Shown here piece after piece: positions 24,813 through 61,147 of a stretch of 64,000 nt of DNA (position 1 is the stretch's first letter; each line of letters starts with the position of its first letter). The DNA is from Giardia intestinalis (lineage: Eukaryota). Below the pieces are notes generated by a model. That model was not told the DNA's origin. It saw only the letters and a list, made by a program, of their open reading frames with translations, and searched no databases. The stretch lies in assembly GCA_000002435.2 (NCBI GenBank), contig CM018793.1. One strand, 5' to 3'. The translations under genes and the position numbers were made by a program.

Positions 24813-25051
24813 GATAATTTATTTTAATTTCAGTAAGCCAACGGTGATTGCTACATGCCCCTCTGTTGCACAAATGCAGGCCGAAACAGTGTTCCTCGGG
24901 CAATGGACACGAAGAGCCCTTTTAATTTTAAAGTAATCTTCTGTGAGCACTCTGAATCATAGTCAAAGTGTGCTGGCATACAGATCCTACGAGATAAAGT
25001 GTGTTGAGAACCAATATTATTGATATTAGATTACTTAACTTAAAAAGCCGA

Positions 25052-25411
25052 ATGGAGGCCTTTGTTGATGTTCGAATGCTCGGTTTGTGGGCGTCGTCTA
25101 AGGCGGCTACATGTACTAACGAGATCTCAGAGTGCCAGGATGTCATGCACTTCCTGCTGGCAGCAGAGGAGCTACTGCTATCAGGAAAGAGTGAGCGGAA
25201 GGTTCTCGTGCACTTAGGTTGCGACGTCTACGAGCCTGGTCTTTGCGACTTAAATGGGTGGATAAAGATCCACCTCGGCGCAGGGATTGTGGTTGAGATG
25301 ACCTATGCAGAGGCCAAGAAGTATTTGACACGGCGGATTCGTGATCTTACCGATGAGATAGACGAACTTCATAAGACCATGGCTGATTGCGCAGCTTTAT
25401 GTTCTAATTGA
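25052..25411 (+). CDS. UXT: UXT / prefoldin alpha-type subunit-like protein
   Basis: The first ATG is at 25052, after cttaaaaagccga. VLVHLGCDVYEPGLCDLNGWIKIHLGAGIVVEMTYAEAKKYLTRRIRDLTDE parallels the human UXT block VDLGCNFFVD...[25 protein letters not shown] as I recall it. Confidence 0.55.
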   Translation: MEAFVDVRMLGLWASSKAATCTNEISECQDVMHFLLAAEELLLSGKSERKVLVHLGCDVYEPGLCDLNGWIKIHLGAGIVVEMTYAEAKKYLTRRIRDLTDEIDELHKTMADCAALCSN

Positions 25412-26042
25412 GACCTATCCTGTCTTATTCACTGTCTACACCTCAAGATAGCCACTTATCATTCTAGCAGCTAGAGTTCTCAACTCTCCAGTGTTATGTC
25501 CTTGTTGGATCGCCCATAACTATCTGGTGCGTTGTACCGTAGTTTTCGATGCACGTATGCAATGCAGTATCCGATTGTATCTCTATTCGGCAAACGTGAG
25601 ATGTACTTGGATTTACCCTTGAGGCAGAGTATTCATCTTATTAGACGCAACAGTGCTGCCGACCAAGCCACTGCTAGGCAGAGCACACGGCCTGTATCTG
25701 CTCATCTCGTGCTCTAGCCAGCCACCCTGCGTGAGCATCTGGAGACATGCCTGGACATATGTGTGGTATTCTGCGGTGTGTACGGTCCCGTGTCCACGCA
25801 GTAGGCCAGCCAGAGAGCGTGTGCAGGCACGCCATGTGGCACCACGTCCTTTGTGGAGCGCTGGAGGAATACACAGGTGAGGGTCTACCATCAAGATGCG
25901 GACACGTTGCTTCCTGACATGGAAGGTCAATGAGGCTATCCAGATGGCCCAGCTATGGTAGAAGGCTAGCAGATGTGATCGTATTGGCCATCAGCACTGT
26001 CACTAACACCAACATGCATGACTAATGGACCTAGCAGGGCCG

Positions 26043-26052
26043 CAATGTTGCT
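26043..26052 (+). promoter_or_regulatory. VSP initiator-type motif caATGttgct spanning the start codon
   Basis: The same 10-mer, caatgttgct, spans the ATG of the second VSP at 59356..59365. It matches the PyAatgTT initiator described for vsp genes. Confidence 0.55.
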
Positions 26053-27610
26053 ACTAGTTCTCTGCTTTTTGATGAGCGCCCTCGCCGCGCAACGCACTAA
26101 ACAACCCACATCCGACTGCGGAGTCGCAAACTGCGCCCAGTGCAACGCGGACGGCAGGACGTGTGATCAGTGCAGCGAGGGGTACAACCTCAACCAGGAG
26201 AAGACCCAGTGCACCAAGGCGTGCGCGGTCGCAAACTGCGCCCAGTGCAACGCGGACGGCAGGACGTGTGATCAGTGCAGCGAGGGGTACAACCTCAACC
26301 AGGAGAAGACCCAGTGCACCAAGGCGTGCGCGGTCGCAAACTGCGCCCAGTGCAACGCGGACGGCAGGACGTGTGATCAGTGCAGCGAGGGGTACAACCT
26401 CAACCAGGAGAAGACCCAGTGCACCAAGGCGTGCGCGGTCGCAAACTGCGCCCAGTGCAACGCGGACGGCAGGACGTGTGATCAGTGCAGCGAGGGGTAC
26501 AACCTCAACCAGGAGAAGACCCAGTGCACCAAGGCGTGCGCGGTCGCAAACTGCGCCCAGTGCAACGCGGACGGCAGGACGTGTGATCAGTGCAGCGAGG
26601 GGTACAACCTCAACCAGGAGAAGACCCAGTGCACCAAGAACCCAGAAGCGCGATGCAATACTCCCAACTGTAAGACCTGTGACAGCCCCAAAACAGACAG
26701 TGAAATCTGCACTGAATGTAATAATGGCAACTACCTCACCCCGACAAAGCAGTGCACGCAGAGCTGCGGAACAATAGGAAGCTACTACAACGGAGACAAA
26801 GTGTGCGAGCCCTGTGATCCTAGCTGTGCTGCGTGCATCACAAAGGGACCAGCGAAGTGCACGCTGTGTCCTCCCGGGAAGAGGCTCCAGTACACAGATG
26901 AAGGAGCCACTCAGAACGGCGGATCCTGCGTAGATGAGTGCAAGCCTGAAGGAGGAGCTAGCGGATGCGAGACCTGCGGAGCCACCATCGGAGGGACAAA
27001 GTATTGCTCGAAGTGCAGCACATCCACGGAGGTCCCCGTCAACGGGGTCTGTACAGCAGACAATGCCCGCGCAGCTGCGTGCAAGGTGAAAGATGGCAAG
27101 GGAGGGTGCACTACGTGTGAGAGTGGATACTTCCTCCAAGACGGCGGTTGCTACAAACTCGGTAGACAGCCCGGTGAGCAGATATGCACAGCAGCCAGTA
27201 GCGCTGGTAAGTGCGAGACGTGCGCCAATAGTCTTCAGCCCAATAATGGAGCATGCCCCTCGTGTCACTCGACCTGTAAGACATGTCGTGATGCTAATTC
27301 TGCAAATGCTTGTACAACGTGTGCAGCTGGGTACTATATGGTCGGATCAGCAGCTGGACCATGCACTTCGTGTGACAGCAACAGTGGAAGTGTCAAGGGA
27401 GTTGCTGGCTGCATGAGCTGCGCTCCTCCATCGTCTAGTACTGGCTCCGTCCTTTGCTACCTCATGAACGGTGACAGTGCCGGCGGAAGCACGAACAAGA
27501 GCGGCCTTAGCACAGGCGCCATCGCAGGCATTTCTGTCGCAGTCATCGTTGTCGTGGGGGGTCTTGTCGGCTTCCTCTGCTGGTGGTTCCTCTGCAGGGG
27601 CAAGGCGTAG
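26045..27610 (+). CDS. vsp: variant-specific surface protein (VSP) with five 35-aa tandem repeats
   Basis: Signal peptide MLLLVLCFLMSALAA, many CXXC motifs, a GGCY motif (QDGGCYKLG), and the conserved C-terminus GLSTGAIAGISVAVIVVVGGLVGFLCWWFLCRGKA. In-frame upstream ATGs at 26018/26014 are possible, but the initiator motif favours 26045. Confidence 0.95.
   Translation: MLLLVLCFLMSALAAQRTKQPTSDCGVANCAQCNADGRTCDQCSEGYNLNQEKTQCTKACAVANCAQCNADGRTCDQCSEGYNLNQEKTQCTKACAVANCAQCNADGRTCDQCSEGYNLNQEKTQCTKACAVANCAQCNADGRTCDQCSEGYNLNQEKTQCTKACAVANCAQCNADGRTCDQCSEGYNLNQEKTQCTKNPEARCNTPNCKTCDSPKTDSEICTECNNGNYLTPTKQCTQSCGTIGSYYNGDKVCEPCDPSCAACITKGPAKCTLCPPGKRLQYTDEGATQNGGSCVDECKPEGGASGCETCGATIGGTKYCSKCSTSTEVPVNGVCTADNARAAACKVKDGKGGCTTCESGYFLQDGGCYKLGRQPGEQICTAASSAGKCETCANSLQPNNGACPSCHSTCKTCRDANSANACTTCAAGYYMVGSAAGPCTSCDSNSGSVKGVAGCMSCAPPSSSTGSVLCYLMNGDSAGGSTNKSGLSTGAIAGISVAVIVVVGGLVGFLCWWFLCRGKA
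26123..26638 (+). repeat. perfect tandem repeat, 105-bp unit x 4.9, in frame inside the VSP
   Basis: Unit gtcgcaaactgcgcccagtgcaacgcggacggcaggacgtgtgatcagtgcagcgaggggtacaacctcaaccaggagaagacccagtgcaccaaggcgtgcgcg starts at 26123, 26228, 26333, 26438 and 26543. I saw no mismatch between copies. It encodes (A)CAVANCAQCNADGRTCDQCSEGYNLNQEKTQCTK. Confidence 0.95.
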
Positions 27611-27616
27611 ATGTGT

Positions 27617-27631
27617 ACTTAGGTAGTAAAC
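27617..27631 (+). terminator. VSP 3' motif plus poly(A) signal ACTTAGGTAGTAAAC
   Basis: It begins 7 nt after the stop. The identical 15-mer follows the other two VSP copies and contains the AGTAAAC poly(A) signal. Confidence 0.8.
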
Positions 27632-28664
27632 GCGTCATTGTGTGTGGCTTATATAAATGTGCTGCTGGGGCTATCTGAGCGTGGCCCAGAGGTCGTGCGG
27701 GTGAGCCCGCTCCTTCCTGGCCAGTCCAGGAACGATGGCTGGTTTTGGATGATATAATAGGGATCTCCCTTCACTTGTATACCAGGAGTCTTTTGCGTCC
27801 CTCAGTTGTTCCGCAGAGGTGTGCTCAGTTCGAGTGTGCGCGTCGCTCAGCCCAGGATTCAACTTACTTGTCCATCTGCATTGTCCACCATTGGTGCCAC
27901 TTCTTGGTCTACCGCTCTGATGCCGGAGGGTCCCAGTAGTTGATGACCCTGGACTGACGCCTCGACAGACCGAAGCATCAGCCCAAGTGTGCTGTGCAGT
28001 GCAGATGGACCAGCCCACACGTCACTGAGCCAGACGCACTGCACAGGGTGAGCGTCGACACGGTCTCGTACTGGATGACGGACCACCTGCAAGAGCGCAC
28101 TGCGATCCATGAGCAGAGGACCATACTTCTCCCCCGATACCAACGCATAGGAGCTGTCCGCCGGCATCCACGAACGCGTACTATGACTCCAAGATAGAGG
28201 CGCACGGGGAGCATACCCTCCGATCATACTCGGAACCGATGATCGCTTCATGGGGAGACAAAGAGGTGCCCCGAGGAACGGGATAGGCACCCGAGGTCGT
28301 GGCGTGCGATCTTCGTCACGGAGCACCAGGGCCACGTGGAGGCCAGGCTGCTGTGACCGACGGTAGCCCCGAGACAACAGGTGCTCACTAGATATCAGAC
28401 GATGGTTGACCCCGACGGGCCAGAGGATGGGAGGAATCTAGAGGCACCGCGAGGAGCGGCAGGTCCCGGGGGAGACAGGATATAGGAGTTCTCCCGCCGG
28501 GATCGAGGGCATCCGACTCTCGGATTTCTGATCTCAGCTATTGTATGAGCGAGAGGCTTGCCCAGGGCGGCAATGGCTCGCATGAAAAGACCACTCCGGT
28601 AGCAGGCGACAACCCCGCCTCATTAAAATTTACTCTTCCCTAACCTCGTCTCTCTAGATATCTG

Positions 28665-29219
28665 ATGGTAGGCCCATTTGACAGTCTTGCAGATGCATTA
28701 ATACGACAGATGAACCTCCAGTTGGAGGACATGCGGCACAATGGAGAATACTCTCTCCTTCTAAGGATCATTCGGGGCCAGACCTCATTAACAGACAGAG
28801 TTGCCAAGAACCAAGAAGCACTATCTGTTGCCCGGAAGAAAGCAGGGGCAATTTTGACTGTATCACGACCTAAGCCACAAACTGACCCTGGATTTATTCA
28901 GAGAACGCAAAAAGCCCTTGAAGAAACACAGGACGCTATCCAGGAGACTCAGCGAAATATAGAGCGTCTCGAAGCCCAGCTAAAAGATGTTACTGCCAAG
29001 ACTGCAAACAAGGATGAATTACGACGTGCTGCATTGACTCTAGCAGACAGAGAAAATGCGGGTAGGGAGGAGCTCGTTGAACTTTATCACAGCATATCGG
29101 GAGTACACTGGGATCAGCCCGACTTGGGATATGTGCTTAGCGAGGAGATTGCAAAACCCATCCGTTTCAGCTCCTGTGTCGATGCCACCAACCAGCTCTG
29201 GGAAATGATTAACATGTAG
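28665..29219 (+). CDS. SPC24: kinetochore NDC80-complex subunit Spc24-like
   Basis: 184 aa with an N-terminal coiled coil. C-terminal ELYHSISGVHWDQPDLGYV...IAKPIRFSS...ATNQLWEMI parallels human SPC24 QLYHQVSKIEWDYE...VAQPIHLDS...ISDYLWSLV as I recall it. Confidence 0.55.
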   Translation: MVGPFDSLADALIRQMNLQLEDMRHNGEYSLLLRIIRGQTSLTDRVAKNQEALSVARKKAGAILTVSRPKPQTDPGFIQRTQKALEETQDAIQETQRNIERLEAQLKDVTAKTANKDELRRAALTLADRENAGREELVELYHSISGVHWDQPDLGYVLSEEIAKPIRFSSCVDATNQLWEMINM

Positions 29220-29250
29220 TGACTACATTCACTTCTTACTATGGCTCCGG

Positions 29251-31101
29251 TCATCTTGCCTTTTTCCATCTACTATCTTTGGTAGGAATGCGTACGGGTT
29301 CTGCTAGTTTCCCTTTGCCACGCCCCTTTCCGATTCCTCTGCGAGGCATCATGGGCTTTCTCACTGGGCCCAGCCCTTGTTTCATTGCCCTTGCTGCCCG
29401 TGCATCCGCTCTTCGCATCCGCTCTGTCTTGTGTGACCCGATTGCAAAACTTCCCTGGTAAGTAGAGCGTATTCCCTCTGCATTGGGAAGTAAATAAGAG
29501 GGGACGAATTTCAGGTGCATTGTCATCTGACGTTGTCTTTCTATGAGGGGGTTCGTTTTGATCCGTTTAATCAGGGCCATATCTTTGCTCTGCTGGCTGA
29601 AGTACTTTCGTAAGGAATCTGAAGCCAAAATCTCTGCCTTTATCTCAGAAAGCCGATATTCCTTAATGGCGGAGGGTGTTAGTCCATGCAGCACATCCAC
29701 AACACGGTAGCGGAAGCTCTCCAGGGCTTGGATATTGAACTGAAATGGTGCGAGGAGCTCTTTTCCAAACTCTTCGCGCTGCGCCCGCAATACGTCAAGG
29801 ACGACATCACGATTATCCTTACTATCTTCATGGATAATAGTTATAGCGTGCCCGCAAGGATTGGCGCCACGCGCTGTGCGGCCTATTCTATGGATATAGT
29901 TTATGCTAGACACTGGGCAGTCGAAGTTTAGCACTACATCGACTCTCGTGAAGTCCAGCCCTCTGAAAATTCCGGCCTCCTTTGAGGCTGATGGCGCTGA
30001 TGCTTGCTTCTCTGCTGGGGTGCTAGGGTCATGCTCGGCAGCTTTTGTTGCCATGCTCGAACTATCTGCCTCTTGCACACCTTCAGTTTCCTTATTATCA
30101 GAAGCTTTAGTACCATCTTTGGTATCACTTTTGGTATCATCCTTGGCACTATCCCTGATACTGTCATCAACCGCAATAAGAACATACTCTGCTCCAAGGT
30201 TGTAGCCTTCAATGACTGCTTGCCGAGTCGAGACAGGAAGCTCTGGATTATAAAGAAATGCCTTCTGGCCGAATCGGTACAAGAACAATTTAAGCTTGTA
30301 CGCTGTAGTGACAGAGTTGACAAAGATCACAATGTATCCGCGAAGAATTTGCAGCTTGACAAGGGCATATATTAGCATGTATTTTTTCTCTGTTGTGTCT
30401 AGAGATATTAGATGTTGGACTGGCTGTGTAAGGAGCTTTTGCTCCGTCTCCTCTAGCTTGATAAGCTTTGGCGATCGTAAATGTAGATTGACTATGTTCT
30501 CCAGTTTTTGGTCAAGGGTTGCTGAAAGAAAGAACTTCTGAGCTGACGCGGGCAAATATTCGAGGAGAGCCTCTAGATCGGGACCGTAGTCCATGTCAAA
30601 GATCAAGTCTGCCTCATCGCATACAAACTGGACGATGTTCTTGAGAGAGATCTTGCTGTCTTTGATAAGGTTCATAACCAAAGATGGAGTGGAGATGAGG
30701 ATCTCTGGCATAGACCGCAGAGTAATTGCTTCTGCAGAAGAATTTTCTCCAAGATAAATCGCTGCGCAGGTGACAGTAAATGCGTTGCTTGAAAACTCCT
30801 TTATTATGGCAAGTAGGACCTCCTCGAGCTGGCGACAGAGCTCACGTGTGGGGACCACTATGAGGGCCGTTATGGCGGCCATTGGCTTAACACTCCTAGA
30901 GCGCCCCTGAAGAATGCGATGAAGAATGGCGGTGAGATATATGACAGTCTTCCCGCTACCCGTAAAACTCTGGCAGAGGATATCATTGTGTGCTAAGGCC
31001 TCGGGTATTGCAAGTTTTTGTATAGGTAGTGCCTCATATAAGCCAAGGTTTCGCAGTGCATCGCAGAGTCTAGGATCAATACCGAAGCTCTCCCAATCCA
31101 T
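29251..31101 (-). CDS. DDX56: DEAD-box ATP-dependent RNA helicase, DDX56/Dbp9-like
   Basis: The Q-motif region is FGIDPRLCDALRNLGLYEALPIQKLAIP. Helicase motifs are TGSGKT, VCDEADLIF, LSAT and YIHRIGRTARG. The C-terminal ESFRYRVVDVL...EIKAEILASDSLRKYF...HLKFVPSYLLP matches the DDX56/Dbp9 tail pattern. There is an acidic/Ser-rich insertion. Confidence 0.8.
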   Translation of the reverse strand: MDWESFGIDPRLCDALRNLGLYEALPIQKLAIPEALAHNDILCQSFTGSGKTVIYLTAILHRILQGRSRSVKPMAAITALIVVPTRELCRQLEEVLLAIIKEFSSNAFTVTCAAIYLGENSSAEAITLRSMPEILISTPSLVMNLIKDSKISLKNIVQFVCDEADLIFDMDYGPDLEALLEYLPASAQKFFLSATLDQKLENIVNLHLRSPKLIKLEETEQKLLTQPVQHLISLDTTEKKYMLIYALVKLQILRGYIVIFVNSVTTAYKLKLFLYRFGQKAFLYNPELPVSTRQAVIEGYNLGAEYVLIAVDDSIRDSAKDDTKSDTKDGTKASDNKETEGVQEADSSSMATKAAEHDPSTPAEKQASAPSASKEAGIFRGLDFTRVDVVLNFDCPVSSINYIHRIGRTARGANPCGHAITIIHEDSKDNRDVVLDVLRAQREEFGKELLAPFQFNIQALESFRYRVVDVLHGLTPSAIKEYRLSEIKAEILASDSLRKYFSQQSKDMALIKRIKTNPLIERQRQMTMHLKFVPSYLLPNAEGIRSTYQGSFAIGSHKTERMRRADARAARAMKQGLGPVRKPMMPRRGIGKGRGKGKLAEPVRIPTKDSRWKKAR

Positions 31102-31383
31102 TTTTTAAATTTCAATTATTACAAACTCATACTCATTAGAAAGCTTCTGAATGTAGGAGTCTGCGCTTTCTCCGGCCAATATATTTATGTTCCGCCAGTC
31201 TAAAAAGCAGCTCGCATGCAGTTTCTGATGGATAGGATGTGGCTTTCTGTGATCGGGGCCACAGAATCGAAACGACAATCAAGAGTGTCATACAGTATTA
31301 CCATTCGCTCATCATTATGTTGGATTAATTGGCCTGTAGAGAAGCATTATCACGAATGAATCACCTTGCTTCATCATTTGGAA

Positions 31384-33771
31384 TTACTTTACAGGGCCAC
31401 TTGCATCATCCTTGTTGCTCATTTTCTTTTCAAAAAGTGCATATAAATTGCTTATGCTTTCAATCTGTTTCATCAATATAGAATTTCTAATAAGAATGTT
31501 ATCATATCTTGATAACTCGGCTGTAAGCTTATTAAAGACCATCACATCCTCTGGTATTAGTGGATCCGGTGATATCAGTGAAGCAGATTTATCGGCGGTC
31601 TCTGCCTCTACCTCCAGGGTGTCATGTAAAAGAGCTACAGAACCAGTGGCTCTTGAGCAGTTTTCAGCGTTCTGGATCGTATCCTTTGGCGGCTTCCTGC
31701 ACAGCTGATAGCTAGATTTGCATGGCTTACAGCAGCACATAAAGCACCTGACACACAGTGGGCAAAGCCTCACAAAAAGGGGGACAAAAATGATGAGTAG
31801 GATGATTGACATGATAAGCAAAAGAATTCGCCCAACCCTCGTCGTAAAAAACAGCCTTACAATTTCAAAGAAGCCCTTCCCCTTCAGCTTTTCAAAGAAC
31901 TCTATTACGTCCCGGAAAACTGTGTTTTTCCACGACGGAACTTCAGGATCAGCAAAAACAAAGTCGTCGAGACACATGTAAAGCTTGTTATCTTCACGCG
32001 TTTCATAGCGTGTTGCTCCCTCTGGGCAGACGCATGGAACTGCCAAAATGTTGGTGCTATTATTTTTCTTTCCCTTTCCACAATCTACAGAAATATTAGT
32101 AAATGGTATGTACTGAGGGATGAAGAGATCGTCTGCGCTTACCCCATCTTCCGCTGCCTTCTCCTCTGTGGATATGCACACGCCTCTTATGGACGAGAAG
32201 TATGGACGAGAATGTCCATACTTAGCTAGGCAGTCGACCGGCCTGCATGACGGAATATCACCCATTTCCATGGTCTGATCACATGAGCAGGCGACTAGGC
32301 ATACAAGGGTGGATGTTTGTGGAGCTGTAAATCGTATGTCTGGGTCTACACACTGTACAGGAGAGTCTATCCTCACGTAGGTTCCTGGCGCATATCCAGA
32401 TACTGTCCCTAGCCAAGAGATAGTGGCTTCGCTAGTAGCCGCCTGGGACTCGCTTTCGGGCCCCGCGGCTTGGAGAAATTGTATACTACACCTTCCTGGG
32501 CTCAAAGCAAGAGATTCGGCAACGATGACATTTGCCGGGCTCGTCAGCAAAAAGCTGTAGATGGCTGTCTTATCCACGTCAATGAAGTGCTTGATAGGCT
32601 TTCCTGTATAAGTAAAGGACCCAACGATTGGAGAGCTCGAAATGCACCGAAGAAGCTTGACTGTCACTACTCCCGGCATCATGCCTTCGTTCCCAACTGT
32701 AATGTTCAAGATGGCCTGCCTGCGGACGAGACTCACTACCGATTGAAGCACAACCGGCTTGCCTATGAGTTGTGTGAGCGTGACACTGTCTGCTGAAATG
32801 TGTAGACTAAATGCCAATAGAAGAATATCATCGCTGCATGCATACTTTACGGTTTGTGCTGAATCGCCACTCATGTTACACCCCTCTACACAGTTGCAAT
32901 TGCTTGGCAAATAAGGTGAATCATCCCTGTAGTTTAGTAGCTGATCGGCAGGAAACACGTCAGGGGTTGGCGGACTGCCTATGAATGTCAGCTCATTCGT
33001 CCTGGTGCTAGAGTCTGAAGCTATAACGGCTCTCTTCCAGACGCTCGGGAGCATGCCCAGTAAGTTTGTGCCACCAAACCCGACAACATCAAAAGGCACT
33101 GCCATGCTATTGAGCACTCCCTCGTTTTCCCTGTGTATCACGTAGCAGCCAAAGCAGAACATGTTATTTGTGGAGCCTGTGGAAACAACCACGGTCTGCA
33201 TGTATGAATTTCCATCTATGACAGGTCCCTTCTTGTTGTGCTCGTTGAAGATGACGTCATACTTGTTAACCGTTCCGTCTTCCTCCTCAATGGTTATGAC
33301 AGCAGTCACTGTGTATGATAAACGTGGGAGACCTGGCTTCCACACTTTGTGTGGGTCGACCTGCTGCAGTTTGCGAACCTTGTTCCCATAGGGCGTTCTT
33401 TTGCAGTGGCCGATATTTGTATCCGTGAAGTCTGGGCATCGAAGGGTAGTGATTTCTAAGGTCTCTGCAGCATTATACGCATCGAAGCGCTTGGCATAAT
33501 CTATGACTGCGCGCGCTTCCATCTTGATGAGGACCTTCACCAGGGACTTAAGCTCCCATCGACTGACAACGTGCCCATCCTTATCGACGATCTGGTAAAT
33601 CTTAGACGTGGTATAGGAAAGCTGCTTGTCGTAAGCATCTGACTTAATCTCGCCATAGATGGAGACGTACTGCTTTCCGTCAGACGTTATGATCTCACTA
33701 TTGATGCCTTGAGTCGGCTCGGTAGCAAGCGCTGACCACAAGCAAACAGCCCAAATGCACGATCTAATCAT
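31384..33771 (-). CDS. type I membrane protein, candidate HAP2/GCS1-like fusogen
   Basis: Signal peptide MIRSCIWAVCLWSALA, a ~620-aa Cys-containing ectodomain, one TM (nt 31768..31833), and a juxtamembrane Cys cluster CPLCVRCFMCCCKPCKSSYQLC. ITTLRCPD...C, KVWKPG...SYTVTAVITIE, ADQLLNYRDDS, ISADSVTLTQLIGKPV and ILNITVGNEGMMPGVVTVKLLRC occur in the same order as the plant HAP2 blocks. The ORF itself is secure. The family call is tentative. Confidence 0.45.
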   Translation of the reverse strand: MIRSCIWAVCLWSALATEPTQGINSEIITSDGKQYVSIYGEIKSDAYDKQLSYTTSKIYQIVDKDGHVVSRWELKSLVKVLIKMEARAVIDYAKRFDAYNAAETLEITTLRCPDFTDTNIGHCKRTPYGNKVRKLQQVDPHKVWKPGLPRLSYTVTAVITIEEEDGTVNKYDVIFNEHNKKGPVIDGNSYMQTVVVSTGSTNNMFCFGCYVIHRENEGVLNSMAVPFDVVGFGGTNLLGMLPSVWKRAVIASDSSTRTNELTFIGSPPTPDVFPADQLLNYRDDSPYLPSNCNCVEGCNMSGDSAQTVKYACSDDILLLAFSLHISADSVTLTQLIGKPVVLQSVVSLVRRQAILNITVGNEGMMPGVVTVKLLRCISSSPIVGSFTYTGKPIKHFIDVDKTAIYSFLLTSPANVIVAESLALSPGRCSIQFLQAAGPESESQAATSEATISWLGTVSGYAPGTYVRIDSPVQCVDPDIRFTAPQTSTLVCLVACSCDQTMEMGDIPSCRPVDCLAKYGHSRPYFSSIRGVCISTEEKAAEDGVSADDLFIPQYIPFTNISVDCGKGKKNNSTNILAVPCVCPEGATRYETREDNKLYMCLDDFVFADPEVPSWKNTVFRDVIEFFEKLKGKGFFEIVRLFFTTRVGRILLLIMSIILLIIFVPLFVRLCPLCVRCFMCCCKPCKSSYQLCRKPPKDTIQNAENCSRATGSVALLHDTLEVEAETADKSASLISPDPLIPEDVMVFNKLTAELSRYDNILIRNSILMKQIESISNLYALFEKKMSNKDDASGPVK

Positions 33772-34051
33772 ATAGTAACTATTTGCAGATCCACACGCTC
33801 ACCCGTCCATAGCGGTTCGTTTCCGGATTGCTCGTTTCCAGTTGTAAATTAATTTAAAGTGAATTCTTCTCAAGTTTTTACGCGGTGTCGAGAATGATGA
33901 GACGTGTTCCTCTCTCCTACAGACTCCCTGGGGATGCTATGTACACCTTACTGATTTACTTTCCTTTTCTCAAGGGCCATTGTGTCGTGCCATTGTGTTT
34001 TTGCGGGGCTTAGTGGTTCCCAGTGCAGTCGCCCGGATCCGGCAGGACCTA

Positions 34052-35251
34052 CTACTCTCTATCATCGTGCTTGAACCCAAACTCAGAGAGAGCAATCTCG
34101 AGAGCCTTGATCCCTTCGATGTATTCTTTCACTGCCTCGGAGTCAAGGAAGTAGCGGCGGGGGGTCATGACCTCCGTTGCGAGGATTTCTGCGGTGGCAG
34201 TCGCGCTGCGTGTGTCGTATTCTTTGCCGCGCAGAAGTTCGTCGCGCCTCATAGTGAAGAATTTGATGATGTTCGTGGCCTTGTAGAGGGCCAGCTTGTA
34301 CTCACTGGTGCCACTGTTGGTCCCGTGCTTGGCGGGGAGTGATTGCATACTTGTAGACCCATCGACACCGTCTACCTGCTCAAGAACAGCTCCGAGCCCG
34401 GTGCTTTGCTGAAGTTTCTGGGTTGTTTCTTGTATCAAGCTCCGAATTCCTGTGTGTGCAGCGCGTATTATCTGTGTCTTATCGTGCAAATCTCGAGATT
34501 GCTCGATTTTAAAACGCTCTATGTTGTCCAAGAGATCAGCCTCTCTTTCGTTAAGGATCTTCCGGAGGCGCTCAAAGCCTTCTCGAGTGCGGGATCGGAC
34601 AAGCTCAACGCTCTCGTTAAGCTCATCTGTAGACACTTTTAGGCTTTCGAGGGCCTGCTCCAAGTCAGAGCTCTTCTGCTGAAGAAGATCGAGGGCAGAA
34701 GACATTTCCAAGCGAACCACGGACAGCCCCTTGGCGACACTCTGAACAATGTGGTCCGGCCCAGGTGGATGGGAGCCGCTGACAATGCAATAAATACAGC
34801 ACAGCTCTTGGCACGTGGCGCAAATGTGCGTCGTCACTTCTGCTTCATGGTACTTGCACATGACAGGAGGCATGTAGTCCAATGCACTGACGCGCTCATG
34901 CCTTACAAAGAGTTTGTTATGGTGGATATTAGCTTCGCATCGACTACAAAGCCAGCCTTGGCAGTTCAAGCAGAACACGGATGCCCCTGCCTCTTGACAG
35001 CTGTCGCAGAGGTGCTGCTTTCCCACAGACCTCTGTGATGTTGCGCCAGATATTAAATTACCAAAGCCCGATGCTGAAATATGCGGTTCAGCAAGATCCT
35101 CGGGCATTTTTGCCTTGGATGCCACGCGCTTCTGGGTCGGTCTGGGCGGCGAACCCTTAGTCTGCGCAAGGGGCATGATGCTCTCATAGCTTTCAGAGTG
35201 GCTTCCAGGAGACTGCCGATCAACAGACGAACGCGTCCTCGCGGCTTGCAT
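34052..35251 (-). CDS. tandem B-box zinc-finger + coiled-coil protein (TRIM-like, no RING)
   Basis: B-box 1 is CDSCQEAGASVFCLNCQGWLCSRCEANIHHNKLFVRHERV and B-box 2 is CKYHEAEVTTHICATCQELCCIYCIVSGSH (nt ~34748..35008). A long helical region follows (LDLLQQKSSDLEQALESLKVSTDELNESVELV). Confidence 0.7.
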   Translation of the reverse strand: MQAARTRSSVDRQSPGSHSESYESIMPLAQTKGSPPRPTQKRVASKAKMPEDLAEPHISASGFGNLISGATSQRSVGKQHLCDSCQEAGASVFCLNCQGWLCSRCEANIHHNKLFVRHERVSALDYMPPVMCKYHEAEVTTHICATCQELCCIYCIVSGSHPPGPDHIVQSVAKGLSVVRLEMSSALDLLQQKSSDLEQALESLKVSTDELNESVELVRSRTREGFERLRKILNEREADLLDNIERFKIEQSRDLHDKTQIIRAAHTGIRSLIQETTQKLQQSTGLGAVLEQVDGVDGSTSMQSLPAKHGTNSGTSEYKLALYKATNIIKFFTMRRDELLRGKEYDTRSATATAEILATEVMTPRRYFLDSEAVKEYIEGIKALEIALSEFGFKHDDRE

Positions 35252-35285
35252 TAAAATTCAAAATTCTTGGTTAAATGAAGTTAGA
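35252..35285. promoter_or_regulatory. 34-nt AT-rich bidirectional intergenic promoter region
   Basis: The divergent ATGs at 35251 (-) and 35286 (+) are separated only by taaaattcaaaattcttggttaaatgaagttaga. Confidence 0.5.
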
Positions 35286-35672
35286 ATGAAGTTTGTACCT
35301 CATGAACGAGGCGGCCTGGGGCCAGATCTAGACCGTGAATGCACACGTGAAGCTCGCGAGAAGCGGACAAAACAACAGGAGTATGCAAGGCGTCTCCGCG
35401 AAACGATCCAGGATCTTCCCAAGCGGGTGGAGAAGCCTCCACGCAAAACGGAGGCCGAGTTGAAACGCGAGAGGCAGCAGGAGTATGCGAAGAACATACC
35501 AAGACCAGCTGTACGTCCTCAAACTGACAGAGAAACCATTTCCCTCCCTCCTCTTAGAAAGTCTACAACACAGGAAGAGAGGCCCATTGTAAAGCTGATG
35601 GACATGCTTGAGCAGCACGACAAGATGCTGAAAGAGTGCGCAGAAATCTACGCATACTTCGGCCTGCAGTGA
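35286..35672 (+). CDS. small basic charged protein (128 aa), unknown function
   Basis: ATG at 35286. K/R/E-rich with a duplicated QQEYA(R/K) motif (KQQEYARRL, RQQEYAKNIPRP). No family assigned. Confidence 0.5.
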   Translation: MKFVPHERGGLGPDLDRECTREAREKRTKQQEYARRLRETIQDLPKRVEKPPRKTEAELKRERQQEYAKNIPRPAVRPQTDRETISLPPLRKSTTQEERPIVKLMDMLEQHDKMLKECAEIYAYFGLQ

Positions 35673-35689
35673 GGCTACAGCTCGGTCAA

Positions 35690-37537
35690 CTAGGGCTCCA
35701 TTATATACCCTTTAGTGTACGTCATTGTGAGAACTATAATCCCGCAAATCAATACTGTTGCAGCAATACTCGCAGAAATAAGTCCACTTTCAAAGTAACT
35801 TTCTTTTATAAATATGTATTGATACTCCTTGTGAATATCCGCAGCGGGCGCTCCAGAGTCAGTGGGGCGGAAGGAAGTCTCGGCATATACGCCGGTACCG
35901 TTTTTGTAAGCTTCCAGGACACTTTTCAGCTTGCTAGAACAGCTTCCTGTCACGTAGTACTCGATATCCTGCTTAGGAACGTTTTCAGACGAGTATACTC
36001 CCCGCTGATACATTGTATCGCAAGTAAATACTAGTTCTTTGCCCCTCTTGTACTCTGTCTCCCCAGACATTCGCACAAAAAGCCTTTCCAAAGTGATTGC
36101 TGAAATGCTAGTGCCAGAGTGGATGTAGATGTCTAAAGTAACTTCTGTCATGCCCTCAGCAACGGGGCATTCCGCCGGGGATCTTCCGATGGGTCGTAAT
36201 ATGGCCAAATTAGTTGCCACGACAAGGGTAGCCCTGGAAAAGCATGTTCGCTGAACACTCCCAGGATAGGGAATAATGGTCTCGGGAAGAGCTTTTCCTG
36301 AAAAGTACTGTAAGGTGAATGAACCTGTCAACGACAGATTGCCAGCCAGCAGCCTATTCATATCTCTGAGGCATGTAACAGTGGTGCATGGAAGGAACTG
36401 CTTTGTCCGTTTGAATGTAAAGTTTGAATTTTCGAGGGATATCCTAATAGTAGGTGCAAGTAACGAGGTGTCCTGTGCAGTTGTAAGCTCTCCGCAGACG
36501 ATGATTTTATGGTAGTCTATTAGGTCGTTGCAGATTGAAGCGGAATCACGTTCAAGAAGCACAGCGAGGACCCCAAAGTAGACCTGCACTATAACAGACT
36601 TATAGCACTTAGAGTACCCTGCGCTGGCCTTGACAGCAGAGACAATCCCTGCTTGAGCAACTGTGCTTGGGGTCACCACTTCTACCTGAGGATCTGAAGA
36701 TGAGACCGCTGTGGGGGTCTTCGACTTTGTCGTACCAGGAATGGGCACATAGACAATCAAGGTTGCAGACCACGCTGTCTCCACCTTGAGGATATCAATA
36801 AGCTCTATGCATCTATCGTATTTGTTTGAATTAGTAAGCCAGTCGTTACCAGGGTAGCGAACCCCGTTGCATGAGTAGCAAAATTGAGTTACTAAATTAT
36901 GGGTATACGGTCTGATAAAGTTGGGTAGTTGAGCATTTGTGCCATGGGATGATAATGTTATGTTTAGATAAGCATCCGGTAGTGTATCCAGATGAATCAA
37001 CATGAAGGCCTCATAAGTATTCTGCAAATTAGTGTCCTTGGGCAGGTCGCAGTCCGAAGGAGTCACTAAAAAGCATATCTCCTTATTGAAATAATCCACC
37101 GAGACCCTAGGATCCGTCCAGCAAGCAGAGTTATTCGTGAGAGTGTAGTAGACATTGGTTGTTACTAACGAGACCTTCGAGCTAGCGTAGTTGAGTTCCA
37201 CCTGGACCACTGTAGACCCAGTGAGATTTGTCTGGCAATCTGAAGTGGCTGTTTTATCTGTTGGACAGGTAAATGTTAGTAAGTTAGGCTGCTCCATACT
37301 CCAAAACGGAACACTTATCGATGAAAATGTGTACGACCCTACCATGGCAGTGGCCGTCATCCCTGTTGTGCCCTGGAGGATGGAGCAGTCGGCGGTCTGG
37401 TGATTTAGTGGCAGCGGCCAGACTGTAATTGCTAATGAATGCTTGTTAAGCAAAATATTAACGGTGGTGTTGGGGGAAAAGCAGCTTAGAGCACTTATGG
37501 TGGCAAACAGGCCCTTTAAAGCCAAGAAGATGAGCAT
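35690..37537 (-). CDS. type I membrane protein, unknown function (615 aa)
   Basis: Signal peptide MLIFLALKGLFATISALS, a long beta-rich-looking ectodomain with scattered Cys and many N-x-S/T sites, and a C-terminal TM LISASIAATVLICGIIVLTM with a short tail. caaaaaa lies just upstream of the ATG. Confidence 0.65.
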   Translation of the reverse strand: MLIFLALKGLFATISALSCFSPNTTVNILLNKHSLAITVWPLPLNHQTADCSILQGTTGMTATAMVGSYTFSSISVPFWSMEQPNLLTFTCPTDKTATSDCQTNLTGSTVVQVELNYASSKVSLVTTNVYYTLTNNSACWTDPRVSVDYFNKEICFLVTPSDCDLPKDTNLQNTYEAFMLIHLDTLPDAYLNITLSSHGTNAQLPNFIRPYTHNLVTQFCYSCNGVRYPGNDWLTNSNKYDRCIELIDILKVETAWSATLIVYVPIPGTTKSKTPTAVSSSDPQVEVVTPSTVAQAGIVSAVKASAGYSKCYKSVIVQVYFGVLAVLLERDSASICNDLIDYHKIIVCGELTTAQDTSLLAPTIRISLENSNFTFKRTKQFLPCTTVTCLRDMNRLLAGNLSLTGSFTLQYFSGKALPETIIPYPGSVQRTCFSRATLVVATNLAILRPIGRSPAECPVAEGMTEVTLDIYIHSGTSISAITLERLFVRMSGETEYKRGKELVFTCDTMYQRGVYSSENVPKQDIEYYVTGSCSSKLKSVLEAYKNGTGVYAETSFRPTDSGAPAADIHKEYQYIFIKESYFESGLISASIAATVLICGIIVLTMTYTKGYIMEP

Positions 37538-37860
37538 AAGAGGGGTTTTTTGAAATCACTTATGCCAAGTAAACGGTCTCCGGAGGAGTGGAAGCAAACA
37601 GATTGATGCGTTGCTCTACAAGGCAGGCACTTCTGTGGTACTTTTGTAGCGGCACTTAAGGCCACATTCCTCGGCTATTGCCTGCTACTTTTTGGAAAAA
37701 ATCATTATCCCCTCCCCTCAGTCATCTGGGCACACGCACCTCAGAGCAACATGAAGAAAGCGAAATACTAGGAACGCCATTCAACATGCAATTAGGTATT
37801 TTAAAAACCTTATCGAAATTAAATTAAAATTTGGGAATACAAAGCCAAATCGCAAAAGCC

Positions 37861-40635
37861 ATGTTCTCCCATGAGGTTGCCCTTAGCAGCAAGCCGCCAA
37901 TTTCCCCTCAGAAGCCCGTGAACCCCCGTGTAGCTGCGCTCCTCGTTGAGCAGGACTCAATCGGGCACGGCAAGGCTATCGCGAATACGCTACTGGCTGA
38001 TAACAGCCAGGCCATGGGGACGTGCATCGGGTCGTTGCAGTTTCACAACATGTTCCAGGTACCCTCTAAGATAAAGGAGGACACCATTCAGAGCAACATC
38101 ATCAGCTTCATAAAGTATCACCTGGGGCGTGACTCCACCACTATAGACACCTTTGGAATGTTCCAGGCTACCTCGATATCGATTCGCAACACCCTTATTG
38201 ACAACTGGCGCAAGACTCTACAGCACCAGACCGCTACAAAGGCGCGCACGGTTAACTATCTCAGCTTGGAGTTTCTGATGGGCCGCGCTCTGACCAACAC
38301 GCTCTACAATTTGGAGTTGGGCCATGTTTATAAAAATGCCCTCAAGGACCTCGGCTTTACCATCGAGGCTCTCCAGCAGGAGGAGTCCGACGCGGCCCTT
38401 GGAAACGGTGGTCTTGGCCGTCTAGCAGCGTGCTTTATCGATTCCATGGCGTCTATGGACATTGCTTCGTACGGGTATGGCATCCGCTACAGTTATGGAA
38501 TGTTCAAGCAAACCATTAGAGATGGGTGTCAAGAGGAGTTCCCAGACTATTGGCTGACACACGGCAGCGAACCGTTCCCCATAATCGAGCGTCTCGACAA
38601 GGACTACACCGTGCGCTTCTACGGTTATTCTAGCAGTGAGCCAGATGTCAAGAACCCTAAGCGCAAGCTTTTCAGATGGGAAGGGGGCGAAACTGTCCGC
38701 GCCATAGCTCACGATTGCCTTTGCCCTGGGCATCACACAACCAACGTATCTAACATCAGGCTTTGGAGTGCCCAGGCTAGCTGTGACTTCAATCTGGCCG
38801 CCCATAGTAGCGGGGACTATTACTCCTCCATCCGCGAGCGCATGGAGAGCGAAAACATCTCCTTTGTACTGTATCCGTCTGACAGTACGGACAGCGGAAA
38901 ACTCTTGCGACTTAAGCAGGAGTACTTCTTCGTCTCTGCCTCTCTGCAGGATATGATCTACCGCTGCAAGAATATGGGCTGCAGTGTTCATGACTTCCAC
39001 AAATACTTCGCGATCCAGCTGAACGATACACATCCTGCTCTGGGCATTCCCGAGCTCATGCGCTTGTTGATGGACGAGGAACGTCTCGAATGGTCGGAAG
39101 CCTGGACAATCGTCAGCAACACCTTCTGTTACACAAACCACACAGTTCTTCCTGAGGCTCTCGAAAAGTGGAATCTCGGAATCATTGCAAAGCTCCTCCC
39201 CAGACATACAGAGATCATATTTGAAATCAACCGTCGCTTTATTGATGAGTTGAGAAAGATCCACAAATGTCCAGACGATGTTATCTCGAAGCTCTCGATA
39301 TTTGAAGAATGCGGAGGATCCAAGAAGGTGCGCATGGCCAACCTTAGCATTATAGGCTCATACAAAGTTAATGGAGTGGCGGCTCTCCACACGGAGATCA
39401 TCCGGAACACGCTCTTCAAGGAGTTCAATGATCTCTATCCCAACAAGATTGTCAATGTCACTAACGGAGTCACACCGCGTAGATGGGTTGCGCAGGCGAA
39501 CCCGCTTCTGTCTCACTATCTCACCAAGCACCTGAAGGAGCATAAGATAGCGGAGTCTGAGCACGAGTGGCTCAGTAATATGCAGCTGCTCACCTCGCTT
39601 GTGGAGCCTCTATCTAAGGATTCTCATGCAATAGCTGAGCTTTTGGAGATCAAGAGGCATAACAAGCAACGCCTGGCAAACTACATCCAGAGGCATGTGA
39701 GCTCTGAGTATACGTTCGACCGTCCGATTCCCACCACAATGATCTTCGATACCCAAGTGAAGCGTATCCATGAGTACAAGCGCCAGCTTCTGAACATTCT
39801 TCAAGCCATCCATTTCTATTTGACCCTCAAGCAGATGCACACGCACGAGGAGAAGGAGGCGTTCATGGGATCAGGGGTTTGCAAGATATTTGCTGGTAAG
39901 GCTGCATCGGCCTATGTGACTGCAAAGCGCATCATCAAACTCATAAACAATGTGTCGAAGCGCATAAATAACGATCCGGATACATGCAATTACTTGCAAG
40001 TCTACTTTTTACCGAACTATAACGTGTCATCGGCGGAGATAATATTCCCGGGCACAGACCTTTCCGAGCAAATCTCTACAGCAGGCGCTGAGGCTTCGGG
40101 CACAGGAAATATGAAGGCCTGCATGAACGGCGGAGTTATTGTCGGCACGATGGATGGCGCCAATGTCGAGATCTACAACCATGTGGGCGAGGAGAACATC
40201 TTTATCTTTGGTGCAGACACTAATACCGTTACGGAAGTGAGAGAGCAGTACTCGCAGGGCCGTCGCTTGCAGATATCTACGAGCTTGAATGAGGTCCTTG
40301 ACTGCATTGAGTCTGGCTTCTTCGGTGGCCTAGACGACTACAACACGCACTTCAAGCCCCTCGTAGACATGATCAGAGCGGGCAATGACTGGTATCTTGT
40401 GAGCGTCGACTTCGAAAGCTACAACGAGTGCTACCAGACTCAGATTGTGCCTCTGTTCCGTGATAAGAAGACCTGGGGGAAGATGGCACTAAACAACTGC
40501 CTCCGCATGTCATACTTCAGCAGTGACCGCTCCATCCGCGACTACTGCGAGAAGATTTGGAATGTGGAGCCCTGCAACCCGGACAGCAGTGTTGGTTCCT
40601 GCCTGGCTGGGGTGCCCTTGAACAGAAGTGCCTAG
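37861..40635 (+). CDS. glycogen (alpha-glucan) phosphorylase
   Basis: The first ATG is at 37861 (the track start 37831 is TTG). Motifs are LGNGGLGRLAACFIDSMA, VNGVAALH, HEYKRQLLN, and the PLP-lysine block EQISTAGAEASGTGNMKACMNGG. Confidence 0.95.
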   Translation: MFSHEVALSSKPPISPQKPVNPRVAALLVEQDSIGHGKAIANTLLADNSQAMGTCIGSLQFHNMFQVPSKIKEDTIQSNIISFIKYHLGRDSTTIDTFGMFQATSISIRNTLIDNWRKTLQHQTATKARTVNYLSLEFLMGRALTNTLYNLELGHVYKNALKDLGFTIEALQQEESDAALGNGGLGRLAACFIDSMASMDIASYGYGIRYSYGMFKQTIRDGCQEEFPDYWLTHGSEPFPIIERLDKDYTVRFYGYSSSEPDVKNPKRKLFRWEGGETVRAIAHDCLCPGHHTTNVSNIRLWSAQASCDFNLAAHSSGDYYSSIRERMESENISFVLYPSDSTDSGKLLRLKQEYFFVSASLQDMIYRCKNMGCSVHDFHKYFAIQLNDTHPALGIPELMRLLMDEERLEWSEAWTIVSNTFCYTNHTVLPEALEKWNLGIIAKLLPRHTEIIFEINRRFIDELRKIHKCPDDVISKLSIFEECGGSKKVRMANLSIIGSYKVNGVAALHTEIIRNTLFKEFNDLYPNKIVNVTNGVTPRRWVAQANPLLSHYLTKHLKEHKIAESEHEWLSNMQLLTSLVEPLSKDSHAIAELLEIKRHNKQRLANYIQRHVSSEYTFDRPIPTTMIFDTQVKRIHEYKRQLLNILQAIHFYLTLKQMHTHEEKEAFMGSGVCKIFAGKAASAYVTAKRIIKLINNVSKRINNDPDTCNYLQVYFLPNYNVSSAEIIFPGTDLSEQISTAGAEASGTGNMKACMNGGVIVGTMDGANVEIYNHVGEENIFIFGADTNTVTEVREQYSQGRRLQISTSLNEVLDCIESGFFGGLDDYNTHFKPLVDMIRAGNDWYLVSVDFESYNECYQTQIVPLFRDKKTWGKMALNNCLRMSYFSSDRSIRDYCEKIWNVEPCNPDSSVGSCLAGVPLNRSA

Positions 40636-57500: not shown

Positions 57501-59357
57501 GGGTCTCCACCTGTCCTTATTGTCTGAGGTATGCTTGACTCCGTAGATTCGAAAGATGCTGTACTGTACTCGTACCTGCAAGCCTCAGCCAAGCAAGGCT
57601 ACCATCTTGAAGGCTTGGCAGTGATGAGCCACACAGTCGGCGGGATCTGCAGAGAGCATTCATCCCAATGAGCCTTTTACTTGTCGTATACAGGTTGTGG
57701 CTGTGACCTCATAGGCGCAGGACTTTCTGGAATAACCGGTCAACTACAGAGTCTGTCCACTCATGTAAAGCCACCTGATAGAGGGCGATATCAATCTCGT
57801 CACTCGTCTACAACATACACCAGTCGAATCTCACAGATGAACAAGGGCCACCCAGCCCGCAGCACTAGACATTAACAGATATCCTTCACGACAAAGGGGG
57901 TGAGCGACTAGTAGACCACAGCAGTCGCCTGCCCATTGAAGATCTTCCAGTCACTGACCTAGGTCAGCTTCCTACAAGATCTTGAGAGCTTTATTAGAGG
58001 TGCATGCTTATAGAATCCCCAACTCAAGGTGCATGCTGTCGGACCCTGCTATTTTTCACATCAGCTCGTAGACATCGGTTCTTTTGATCTCTAGTGGGGT
58101 CACGGGGGATCGCAAGATATGGTTCCCTCAGTAAGGCTTTATCTGACTCCTGTAGCTATATGACAGGAGGATACCGGTCTTCTATGGATTATTTAACGCA
58201 TGCTAAGGTGCACCAGTACAAGTCCTACAGTGTGGCATGATTCGTGAGTCAAAAGGTAGGATGCTTGGGCTGATTGGCGTGTCTCCTCGGGACCAAATAC
58301 AGCTAGGACCAAAGGTCATGAACGAATGCTATTCGATTCCCTTATCAGCAGATGGGGGTCAACTGCTCTAGTATCCACAAGAGGCTATAGAGGGTACTGG
58401 ACCAGGCATCCGGCCAATTGCTGGCAAATCAACACAACCTCCTTGGATCTCCATTCTTTCCTCACAGGCATCTACATGTAGGAAGCTCTGAGGACCTAGA
58501 GCCCTACACTAACAGGCTCAAGGTATTGCACTCCTAGGTGCTTCCATTAGTGGTGGTAGTGATAGCACCAGGATGATCCAGAAGGGGGATAGAAATCCTG
58601 CCCCGTTAGCTCAAGAAATGGCACAGTTTGAGCAGGGTTTCCTCCTTGTTTAAATTTGGGAGTACTAGCCTACGCCCTCTGACCATCTGACGCCTTATCA
58701 TGCGATGGGGAATCTTAATAGTATCCACTACAAAAAGCCAGAAATAGCACCATGCACACCCAACAAACCAGAGCGTCTCATAGGCTAATCTACACTGATT
58801 CGCACTTCCACGGACCCTAGCGACCACTGTAACCGTCTCTCGGGATCTTGCAAGGGACTGTCCTTGAGCGCGATTCCTCCATGACAACCAGAAGTCGCAG
58901 ACATAGTCCAAAGGGATGAGAATACTATAGAGGCGGAGAAGAGATCATCTGCGCACGGGGGTCCGCAGGGGCCCGACCCGCACAGGGAAGGCGTAAGAGG
59001 CCAATTCCCCAGGAATGCAGAGACATTAAGAGAGGAACCAGCAGTGGGCCCATAACACAGGGAGGTCACCCGGGCCGCCCCCTGATTGGCCACAGGGTAG
59101 AGGAGCAGCATGCGCGCGGGACAGCATTGCTACTTATTTTTGAATTTTCTGTTTCCCTGCATGTTGTGCAGGGGTCCGCGGTGGGTGCTAGACTATAGTT
59201 AGTAGATGCTTTCGGCATTAACAACTATCTCTTGTACAACAATATTATCAAAAAGGGATTTCTTTAAGCTGGCAGCATAGCAATAACCGAATGGAGCTTT
59301 TTAGCTTTGGGTATCTTTGCTAGTAGGATTCTTGATAGTGGATTAAGAAGAATCTCA
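54589..59357. other. ORF-poor tract (4.8 kb) between the NEK gene and the VSP
   Basis: All six frames are interrupted. The longest ORF in the track here is 108 aa, none has a recognisable motif, and I saw no internal tandem repeat. The rest of the window is mostly coding. Confidence 0.7.
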
Positions 59358-59365
59358 ATGTTGCT
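59356..59365 (+). promoter_or_regulatory. VSP initiator-type motif caATGttgct spanning the start codon
   Basis: The 10-mer is identical to the one at 26043..26052. Confidence 0.55.
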
Positions 59366-60617: not shown

Positions 60618-60631
60618 CTTAGGTAGTAAAC
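60617..60631 (+). terminator. VSP 3' motif plus poly(A) signal ACTTAGGTAGTAAAC
   Basis: It overlaps the last base of the TGA stop and is identical to 27617..27631. Confidence 0.8.
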
Positions 60632-61074
60632 ACGTCACTGTATATGGCTTATTACGCTATTCTGCCGGGGCTATCTGAGGATCGCCCAGAGGTCGTGCGA
60701 GTGATCCTCGCTCAAGCTCTGACCAGTCTAAGGACGAGGGTTGGTCATGAATAACATGACGGAGAGCCCTCTCCAGTGACACATCCAGAATCTGGGCATT
60801 CCTCGCCGCTCCATGAGGATATGCTCTGTCTGGATGTCCATGCCGATCTATCTTGGATTCAGGCCTTCTCGCAGGCTCTCTACTCTACCCGTGGCGCCTC
60901 TCCATGGTCTTCCTTCGTGGTGGGTGAAGCTCCGGTCGCTGTTTTTTAGATGCTCCTGTCTGTCAGGGGCTGCCACCGGGCTCTCCGCTGGCTGGGCCCT
61001 CGGTGTCCGTCCGGCTGTGGCCCGGGCAGCGCTCTACGGTCGCGGTCACTTGGGTCTCAGTGGGTTCGGATGGT

Positions 61075-61135: not shown

Positions 61136-61147
61136 GGTTGGTGGTGG

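Follow-up and report, generated by a model that had tools for sequence, protein, structure and literature searches.

Gene and Features of the Locus

[quoted passage not shown] The gene is vsp108 (GL50803_102662), and the window belongs to chromosome 5 of Giardia lamblia WB, an isolate of assemblage A1. The locus is flanked by the prefoldin gene (25001-25411) and a 184-aa gene (28665-29219). A profile search found the Pfam family VSP (PF03302) with E=2.4e-98 and a score of 330 bits, where the cutoff is 31.4, and the 530-aa reading matches XP_001705986.1 at 100% identity, annotated as "VSP [Giardia lamblia ATCC 50803]". Both results agree with the first-pass annotation, made from the sequence alone, in which the gene had been called a VSP. 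ORF calling used translation table 11, a choice without effect on the ORF of vsp108.

The start codon at 26045 is embedded in the initiator element CAATGTT (26041-26047, plus strand), which was read in the sequence gccgCAATGTTgct and is also the Inr given for this gene in the catalogue of Adam et al. (2010). An in-frame upstream ATG adds the stretch MTNGPSRAA (26018-26044, plus strand), found in the ORF list and in the 530-aa model of 2007. This stretch is probably 5' UTR and not coding. The model of 2020 has 521 aa, and the change of the start codon goes back to Xu et al. (2020), who in their re-annotation re-set VSP start codons to yield a proper signal peptide (PMC7000408). Only VSPs with a SignalP-predicted peptide were kept in that work (PMC7000408), and GL50803_102662 was retained as a 521-aa VSP. 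The initiator ATG opens a 78-bp leader (26045-26122, plus strand), which encodes the predicted hydrophobic signal peptide MLLLVLCFLMSALAA, modelled as a helix at residues 2-15, followed by QRTKQPTSDCG.

A tandem repeat array (26123-26638) follows the leader and is succeeded by a non-repeated Cys-rich ectodomain (26639-27517, plus strand). The latter was delimited from the sequence, from its match to three P15 VSP bodies (83-86% identical nucleotides), and from the invariant Cys columns in alignment A1. It contains a GGCY motif at residues 367-370 (QDGGCY, 365-370; nucleotides 27143-27154), of which G368-C369-Y370 are invariant in the same alignment. The coding region ends with a transmembrane segment, AIAGISVAVIVVVGGLVGFLCWWFL, and the cytoplasmic tail CRGKA (27518-27607, plus strand), both near-invariant in alignment A1. 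The C terminus reads GLVGFLCWWFLCRGKA up to the stop codon, with a helix predicted at residues 497-518 in the AlphaFold2 model.

The conserved VSP 3' motif TACTTAGGTAGTAAACGCGT is located eight bases after the stop codon (27616-27635, plus strand) and includes the polyadenylation signal AGTAAAC (27625-27631, plus strand). The same 20-mer has been given for GL50803_00102662 and many other VSPs (bioRxiv 10.1101/2022.03.07.483299). Both the (C/T)AATGTT initiator and the extended poly(A) signal of VSP genes are therefore present at vsp108. The protein contains 71 Cys residues (13.6% of 521 aa, in the range of ~11-14% used for Cys-rich VSPs) and 24 CXXC motifs, and both counts agree with the catalogue values of Adam et al. 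(2010). A scan for bacterial-type promoters and terminators returned nothing usable and is irrelevant to a eukaryote. A further candidate, that the 3' flank is a repeat also present upstream of P0004 and P0010, was dropped, as tblastn gave only E=0.26.

Anatomy of the Repeat Array

Tandem Repeats Finder reported the array at 26123-26638 with a period of 105, 4.9 copies, 100% matches, 0% indels, and a score of 1032. By direct string comparison, perfect periodicity extends over 516 bp (4.91 copies), with no mismatch or indel. The 411 consecutive matching positions at offset 105 cannot be attributed to chance. This is the only long tandem array that Tandem Repeats Finder found within the 64-kb window, and it is in frame 0 relative to the ATG at 26045.

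Four units of 105 bp (35 aa), all on the plus strand, were delimited by Tandem Repeats Finder and string comparison: unit 1 (26123-26227), unit 2 (26228-26332), unit 3 (26333-26437), and unit 4 (26438-26542). These four are alike over the full 105 bp. Unit 5 (26543-26638, plus strand) is truncated. String comparison showed that its first 96 bp equal unit 1, after which the sequence departs and the final 9 bp, GCGTGCGCG, are missing. The array had earlier been described as five perfectly identical 105-bp copies; the starts of the copies, the end at 26638, and the absence of substitutions hold, but the fifth copy extends over 96 bp only. No leftward continuation of the array beyond 26123 was found by sequence comparison at its edge. 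Nevertheless, the 9 bases before the array, GACTGCGGA (D-C-G), are similar to the unit tail GCGTGCGCG (A-C-A), so that the protein has five full Cys-bounded modules.

The translated unit, VANCAQCNADGRTCDQCSEGYNLNQEKTQCTKACA, has six Cys residues arranged in CAQC, CDQC, and CTKAC with the spacing CXXC-x6-CXXC-x12-CXXXC, in line with the 35-aa module with two CXXC motifs described in the first-pass annotation. The first module after the array, CNTPNCKTC…CTEC…CTQSC, is a diverged sixth module with the same CXXC-CXXC-CXXXC pattern. Since it shares the Cys architecture of the units, the repeat is an amplified native VSP module.

The structure of the protein was predicted with AlphaFold2 from a 30-sequence alignment (mean pLDDT 77, about 80 within the array). 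Every unit was modelled with four short strands, at an exact periodicity of 35 residues. The best matches to solved structures in a Foldseek search were furin-like Cys-rich repeats, namely R-spondin Fu1-Fu2 (E about 1e-3, probability 0.98-0.99). The predicted modules are like furin-like repeats (R-spondin Fu1-Fu2, ErbB Cys-rich domains) in having disulfide-rich beta-hairpin pairs stacked into a rod; the TMt values are low (0.28-0.41), and the resemblance is one of fold class only, with no membership claimed. No PDB chain matched the vsp108 protein by sequence. Going by the model, each unit would form a disulfide-bonded module of its own, the gain or loss of which would be structurally tolerated: because the unit is a whole structural module with an even number of Cys residues, the remaining protein should still fold when units are added or removed.

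vsp108 Among the Tandem-Repeat VSPs

The repeat of vsp108 is already known, as there are publications on the gene, on the 105-nt unit, and on the membership in the repeat class. Adam et al. (2010) list vsp108 in their Additional file 1 as a clade II gene, GL50803_102662, of type TR105 with 4 repeats of 105 nt on chromosome 5 (PMC2996952). The same row gives the Inr CAATGTT, 530 aa, 71 Cys, and 24 CXXC (PMC2996952). The catalogued number of 4 repeats differs from the 4.9 copies obtained here with Tandem Repeats Finder. For GL50803_102662, the supplement of a 2022 preprint gives a 105-nt consensus that is exactly the unit found in the window (bioRxiv 10.1101/2022.03.07.483299). With the gene catalogued and an identical consensus in print, no novelty attaches to the repeat.

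In the PacBio-based WB reference, the gene is GL50803_00102662 (XP_001705986.2, NC_051860.1) and has 521 aa, 71 Cys, and five modules (bioRxiv 10.1101/2022.03.07.483299). A further hallmark of VSPs is antigenic variation, in which a single member at a time is displayed on the surface and expression can switch. The expression values of vsp108 in the supplement of that preprint are low, about 3-37 in the supplement's own units, and it is marked "Not Unique" in the peptide table, Supplemental Table S13 (bioRxiv 10.1101/2022.03.07.483299). A main-text literature search for '102662' returned only unrelated papers, and neither PMC11169602 nor PMC10132058 mentions the gene in its supplements. No exact match was obtained for the 530-aa protein or for a hypothetical partial product (26609-27607), and the 521-aa form had no exact entry in the protein collection searched.

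Adam et al. (2010) counted 30 vsp genes that carry repeats, with unit lengths of 105-516 bp, and gave the copy numbers in the assembly as approximate (PMC2996952). The leader of these genes extends for 66-99 bp before the array (Adam et al., 2010, legend to Figure 1; PMC2996952). With its 78-bp leader and a CXXC-bearing unit of 105 bp, or 35 codons, repeated in frame 0, vsp108 is an ordinary member of this class. The first-pass annotation had stated as background that some Giardia VSPs carry immunodominant repeats of variable copy number. This agrees with the accounts of earlier work relayed by Adam et al. (2010), according to which copy numbers vary between alleles of vspA6 and of vspC5, and the repeat of vspA6 is immunodominant (PMC2996952).

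Two groups of known members were compared with vsp108. The gene vspC5 (vsp90; Yang et al., 1994, in PMC2996952) is reported there to have a 105-bp unit as well, with the array after a 66-99 bp leader and with variable alleles; it belongs, however, to clade III and another locus, and its about 20-25 copies reach the conserved 3' end (PMC2996952). The possibility that vsp108 is vspC5 itself was ruled out, as its 4.9 copies are followed by a 957-nt unique body that includes the conserved 3' end. The two are also separate catalogue entries (vsp108 and vsp90). The genes vspA6/CRP170 (vsp67) and CRP136 (vsp130), as far as they are described in the same source, resemble vsp108 in their in-frame N-terminal repeats of CXXC-bearing units and are variable in copy number; they differ in having 195-bp and 120-bp units and 22-25 copies, and encode much larger proteins. 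An alignment of the CRP136 and vsp108 units covered just 41 nt, at 76% identity.

Copy Number Across Assemblies

The Sanger assembly of 2007 and the PacBio assembly of 2020, both of WB-C6 (ATCC 50803), agree in having five modules and 4.9 copies. It follows that the reference array is not collapsed, which qualifies the earlier remark that such an array is easily collapsed or expanded in assemblies.

Different lengths were obtained for other lines. In Pollo et al. (2020), the reference proteins were mapped with exonerate onto hybrid assemblies of nanopore and Illumina reads (PMC7048089). In the beaver assembly, GL50803_102662 (530 aa, 1590 nt) maps as 180 nt, a 210-nt gap annotated as an "intron", and 1410 nt; in the assembly of AWB (WB ATCC 30957), it maps as 180 nt, a 200-nt gap, and 1410 nt (PMC7048089). 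According to the GFF coordinates, the gap in both hybrid assemblies falls within the array, at aa 60/61, between exons that are without indels. The locus is syntenic in the hybrids: GL50803_102654 (8187 nt) is ~14.0 kb away from it, much like the 2729-aa ORF (41614-49803) of the window. The beaver gap is exactly 2x105 bp; the 200 bp of AWB is a multiple of neither 105 nor 3 and probably reflects unpolished indels. Judged indirectly from these coordinates, the other A1 lines (AWB and beaver) appear to carry about 6.9 copies. The 200 and 210 extra bases within the array lend indirect support to the copy-number polymorphism that had been expected from the sequence.

Alternatively, the copy number may be fixed at 4.9 in assemblage A1, with the extra 200-210 bases being errors of hybrid assembly and not polymorphism. 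The AWB gap, with a length that fits neither the unit nor the reading frame, is what such errors might produce, and the distance to the neighboring gene is off by 8 bp in AWB, a sign of residual indel errors. Pilon polishes perfect repeats poorly, and short-read-polished nanopore assemblies are weakest precisely at such repeats. On the other hand, a nearly equal excess is present in two independently sequenced isolates, the beaver excess is exactly two units, and its flanking exons are flawless (insertions 0, deletions 0). Allelic copy-number variation is, moreover, documented for vspA6 and vspC5 in the work relayed by Adam et al. (2010; PMC2996952). A fixed copy number is accordingly the less likely reading of these data, with perhaps one chance in four.

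It is much less probable that the array, its copy number, or its perfect identity is an artefact of assembly or consensus building, through collapsed, expanded, or homogenized units. Adam et al. (2010) did caution that repeat copy numbers in WB are approximate and may be condensed (PMC2996952). The gene is also longer in the two nanopore hybrid assemblies, and among the short-read contigs of dozens of sequencing runs there is none that crosses vsp108. Dozens of Logan contigs containing the flanking genes were found, none of which spans the gene; they end at window position 25851 upstream and at 28478-28727 downstream and give no copy number. The junction between the unit and the body was not found in JGI metagenome contigs. 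However, Sanger and PacBio sequencing are independent technologies and agree for WB-C6 on both the five modules and the protein, the 516-bp array fits within single reads of either kind, and the ORF is intact with all VSP hallmarks present.

Divergence Within and Between Genes

The closest full-length relatives of vsp108 are three VSPs of P15 (assemblage E): ACVC01000194 (P0002), ACVC01000220 (P0003), and ACVC01000171 (P0005). Their bodies are 83-86% identical to vsp108 at the nucleotide level, and they have a homologous module at the matching position, present as 105 bp x 3.0, 120 bp x 2.9, or a single copy. They differ from vsp108 in an extra N-terminal module ahead of the repeats, and the identity between their units and the WB vsp108 unit is only 75-81%. 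None of them is syntenic with the locus in the window, and they were ruled out as positional orthologues.

Both P15 arrays are 100% identical internally and make, together with vsp108, three perfect independent arrays. Across vsp108 and these relatives, the units of different genes are 67-81% identical (19-33% nucleotide difference), and the gene bodies are 83-95% identical. Among the P15 paralogues, dS is 0.9-2.2 for the module and 0.11-0.29 for the body; such an excess in the module argues for mosaic histories. Between the WB unit and the single-copy P15 module, dS is ~0.44, similar to the 0.64 of the body, against 0 within the array, these module values being noisy since only 32 codons are available. 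For units of different genes, also over only 32 codons, dS is 0.4-2.2 and dN/dS is 0.19-0.42.

Tandem repeats were found in 13 of the 120 homologues, and adjacent copies are identical at the protein level in 12 of these 13. Zero divergence is thus the norm of the family and not peculiar to vsp108, which points to rapid turnover or homogenization of the units. The first-pass annotation had read recent expansion or unequal crossover from the zero divergence of the array. This reading gains strength from the absence of any difference within the array, synonymous sites included, against 19-33% between genes, as well as from the three independent perfect arrays and the perfect repeats in almost all repeat-bearing homologues. 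That the units are instead kept identical by selection on their nucleotide or protein sequence is hardly credible: the Cys framework is strongly constrained (invariant Cys columns in alignment A1) and units from different genes show dN/dS values under 1, but synonymous sites are identical too in all vsp108 copies, homologous units elsewhere are strongly diverged at such sites, and third positions cannot be frozen by selection at the protein level.

Within WB, the vsp108 unit is gene-specific. The nearest units come from GL50803_114813 and GL50803_50392. The former has a 120-nt unit that opens with ACTGCGGAGTCGCAAACTGCGCCCAGTGC, also found at 26116-26144 in the window, and is 75.5% identical to the vsp108 unit over 98 nt. 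The latter has a 117-nt unit with 75.6% identity over 90 nt. Both differ from vsp108 in unit length and by about 25% divergence, and both are separate genes.

Proposed Origin and Consequences of the Array

Taken together, the repeat block of vsp108 on chromosome 5 is best read as an amplified native module with recent expansion or homogenization and a changeable copy number, to which we assign a probability of roughly 0.88. One native 35-residue module with six Cys residues would have been amplified head to tail, in frame, straight after the 78-bp leader. Because of this position directly behind the leader, the array would form the membrane-distal tip of the ectodomain. The units would be alike through a very recent expansion or a recent last round of homogenization. 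Judging by the pattern, the likely routes are unequal sister-chromatid or inter-allelic recombination between the 105-bp units, or replication slippage. The process that homogenizes the units may also alter their number, with 4.9 copies in WB-C6 and about 6.9 in the two hybrid assemblies. By analogy with vspA6, the array would be a repeated and probably immunodominant epitope that would confer size variation on the antigen when vsp108 is expressed.

A bolder and rather doubtful extension is that the array is a fast contingency locus, at which WB ATCC 30957 and its clone C6 (ATCC 50803) differ by two units. If so, modules would be gained or lost during laboratory culture, or different length alleles would coexist among the four genome copies, and both antigen size and epitope valency could change without switching of the expressed gene. 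Whether WB sublines or alleles truly differ by two units is the mildly interesting point of the locus. As a discovery, the array carries little weight, since vsp108, its 105-nt unit, and its place among the 30-36 repeat-bearing vsp genes have been published.

The locus calls for caution in the mapping of reads and peptides, given the "Not Unique" mark of vsp108 in the peptide table and short-read assemblies that never span the gene. It also illustrates concerted evolution and mosaicism in an antigen family, both by the 100% identity within the array against 67-81% between genes and by the module dS far above the gene-body dS of the P15 paralogues. In practical terms, the 651 bp across 26050-26700 at 4.9 copies can serve as a simple marker for PCR or long reads, which would report repeat instability and differences between assemblage A1 lines.

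Short-Read Contigs around vsp108

Logan contigs assembled from short reads and carrying the genes next to vsp108 (GL50803_102662; 26045-27610, + strand) were found in dozens of Giardia sequencing runs. All of these contigs stop at 25851 or within 28478-28727: the end point is exactly 25851 for the upstream-side contigs shown, and the downstream-side ends are dispersed over the 28478-28727 interval. The vsp108 cassette (~2.6 kb, with gene-poor flanks) is never connected to the neighboring genes in the Logan contigs. Allelic variation was previously found to be higher around VSPs (Xu et al., 2020; PMC7000408). A flank repeat common to other regions is unsupported for the vsp108 cassette. One Logan contig, L002 (SRR21529620), matches the region 28512-39210 at just 98.6% identity, whereas the identity for the other contigs is 99.9-100%. 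The opening 21 bases of L002 have no match to the window. This contig may originate from another sub-assemblage, in which the sequence beyond the junction, toward the VSP, differs.

Gene Models and Modules of vsp108 and Related VSPs

In vsp108, an additional in-frame ATG precedes the Inr start by 27 bp (26018-26044), which explains the difference between the 530-aa (2007) and 521-aa (2020) models of this gene. Two further long ORFs overlap vsp108: one of 404 aa (26054-27268, - strand) and one of 204 aa in another frame (26163-26777, + strand). Both are periodic because they read through the vsp108 repeat; these ORFs are not genes but by-products of the GC-rich repeat.

In three VSP paralogues related to vsp108 in Giardia P15 (assemblage E; L022, L023, and L024), dS is 0.9-2.2 for the N-terminal module vs. 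only 0.11-0.29 for the gene body. This excess of module dS over body dS suggests module exchange between the P15 VSP genes via recombination.

Inverted VSP Pair at the Window End

Two inverted repeat arms, 59872-61146 and 62726-64000, are 1275 nt each and 100% complementary, the second arm being clipped by the window end. Within this inverted repeat, a VSP gene is present twice in tail-to-tail orientation (ORF at 59307-60617; Pfam VSP, E = 3.4e-26). The computed stop-to-stop spacing of 2637 bp is the same as that listed for the chromosome 5 pair d14331/14331 (419 aa) in Table 2 of Xu et al. (2020; PMC7000408). The pair corresponds to vsp107.1/107.2 (Adam et al., 2010; PMC2996952). Micro-repeats with a 9-bp unit lie within the arms, at 61103-61134 and 62738-62769, as mirror images of each other.

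Kinase-Ankyrin ORF

A 741-aa ORF (52459-54684, - strand) encodes a protein kinase domain and many ankyrin repeats, a domain layout typical of the Giardia NEK/ankyrin architecture. Both GC skew and AT skew are markedly negative across this region, which also contains an imperfect 27-bp x 2 repeat at 53377-53430.
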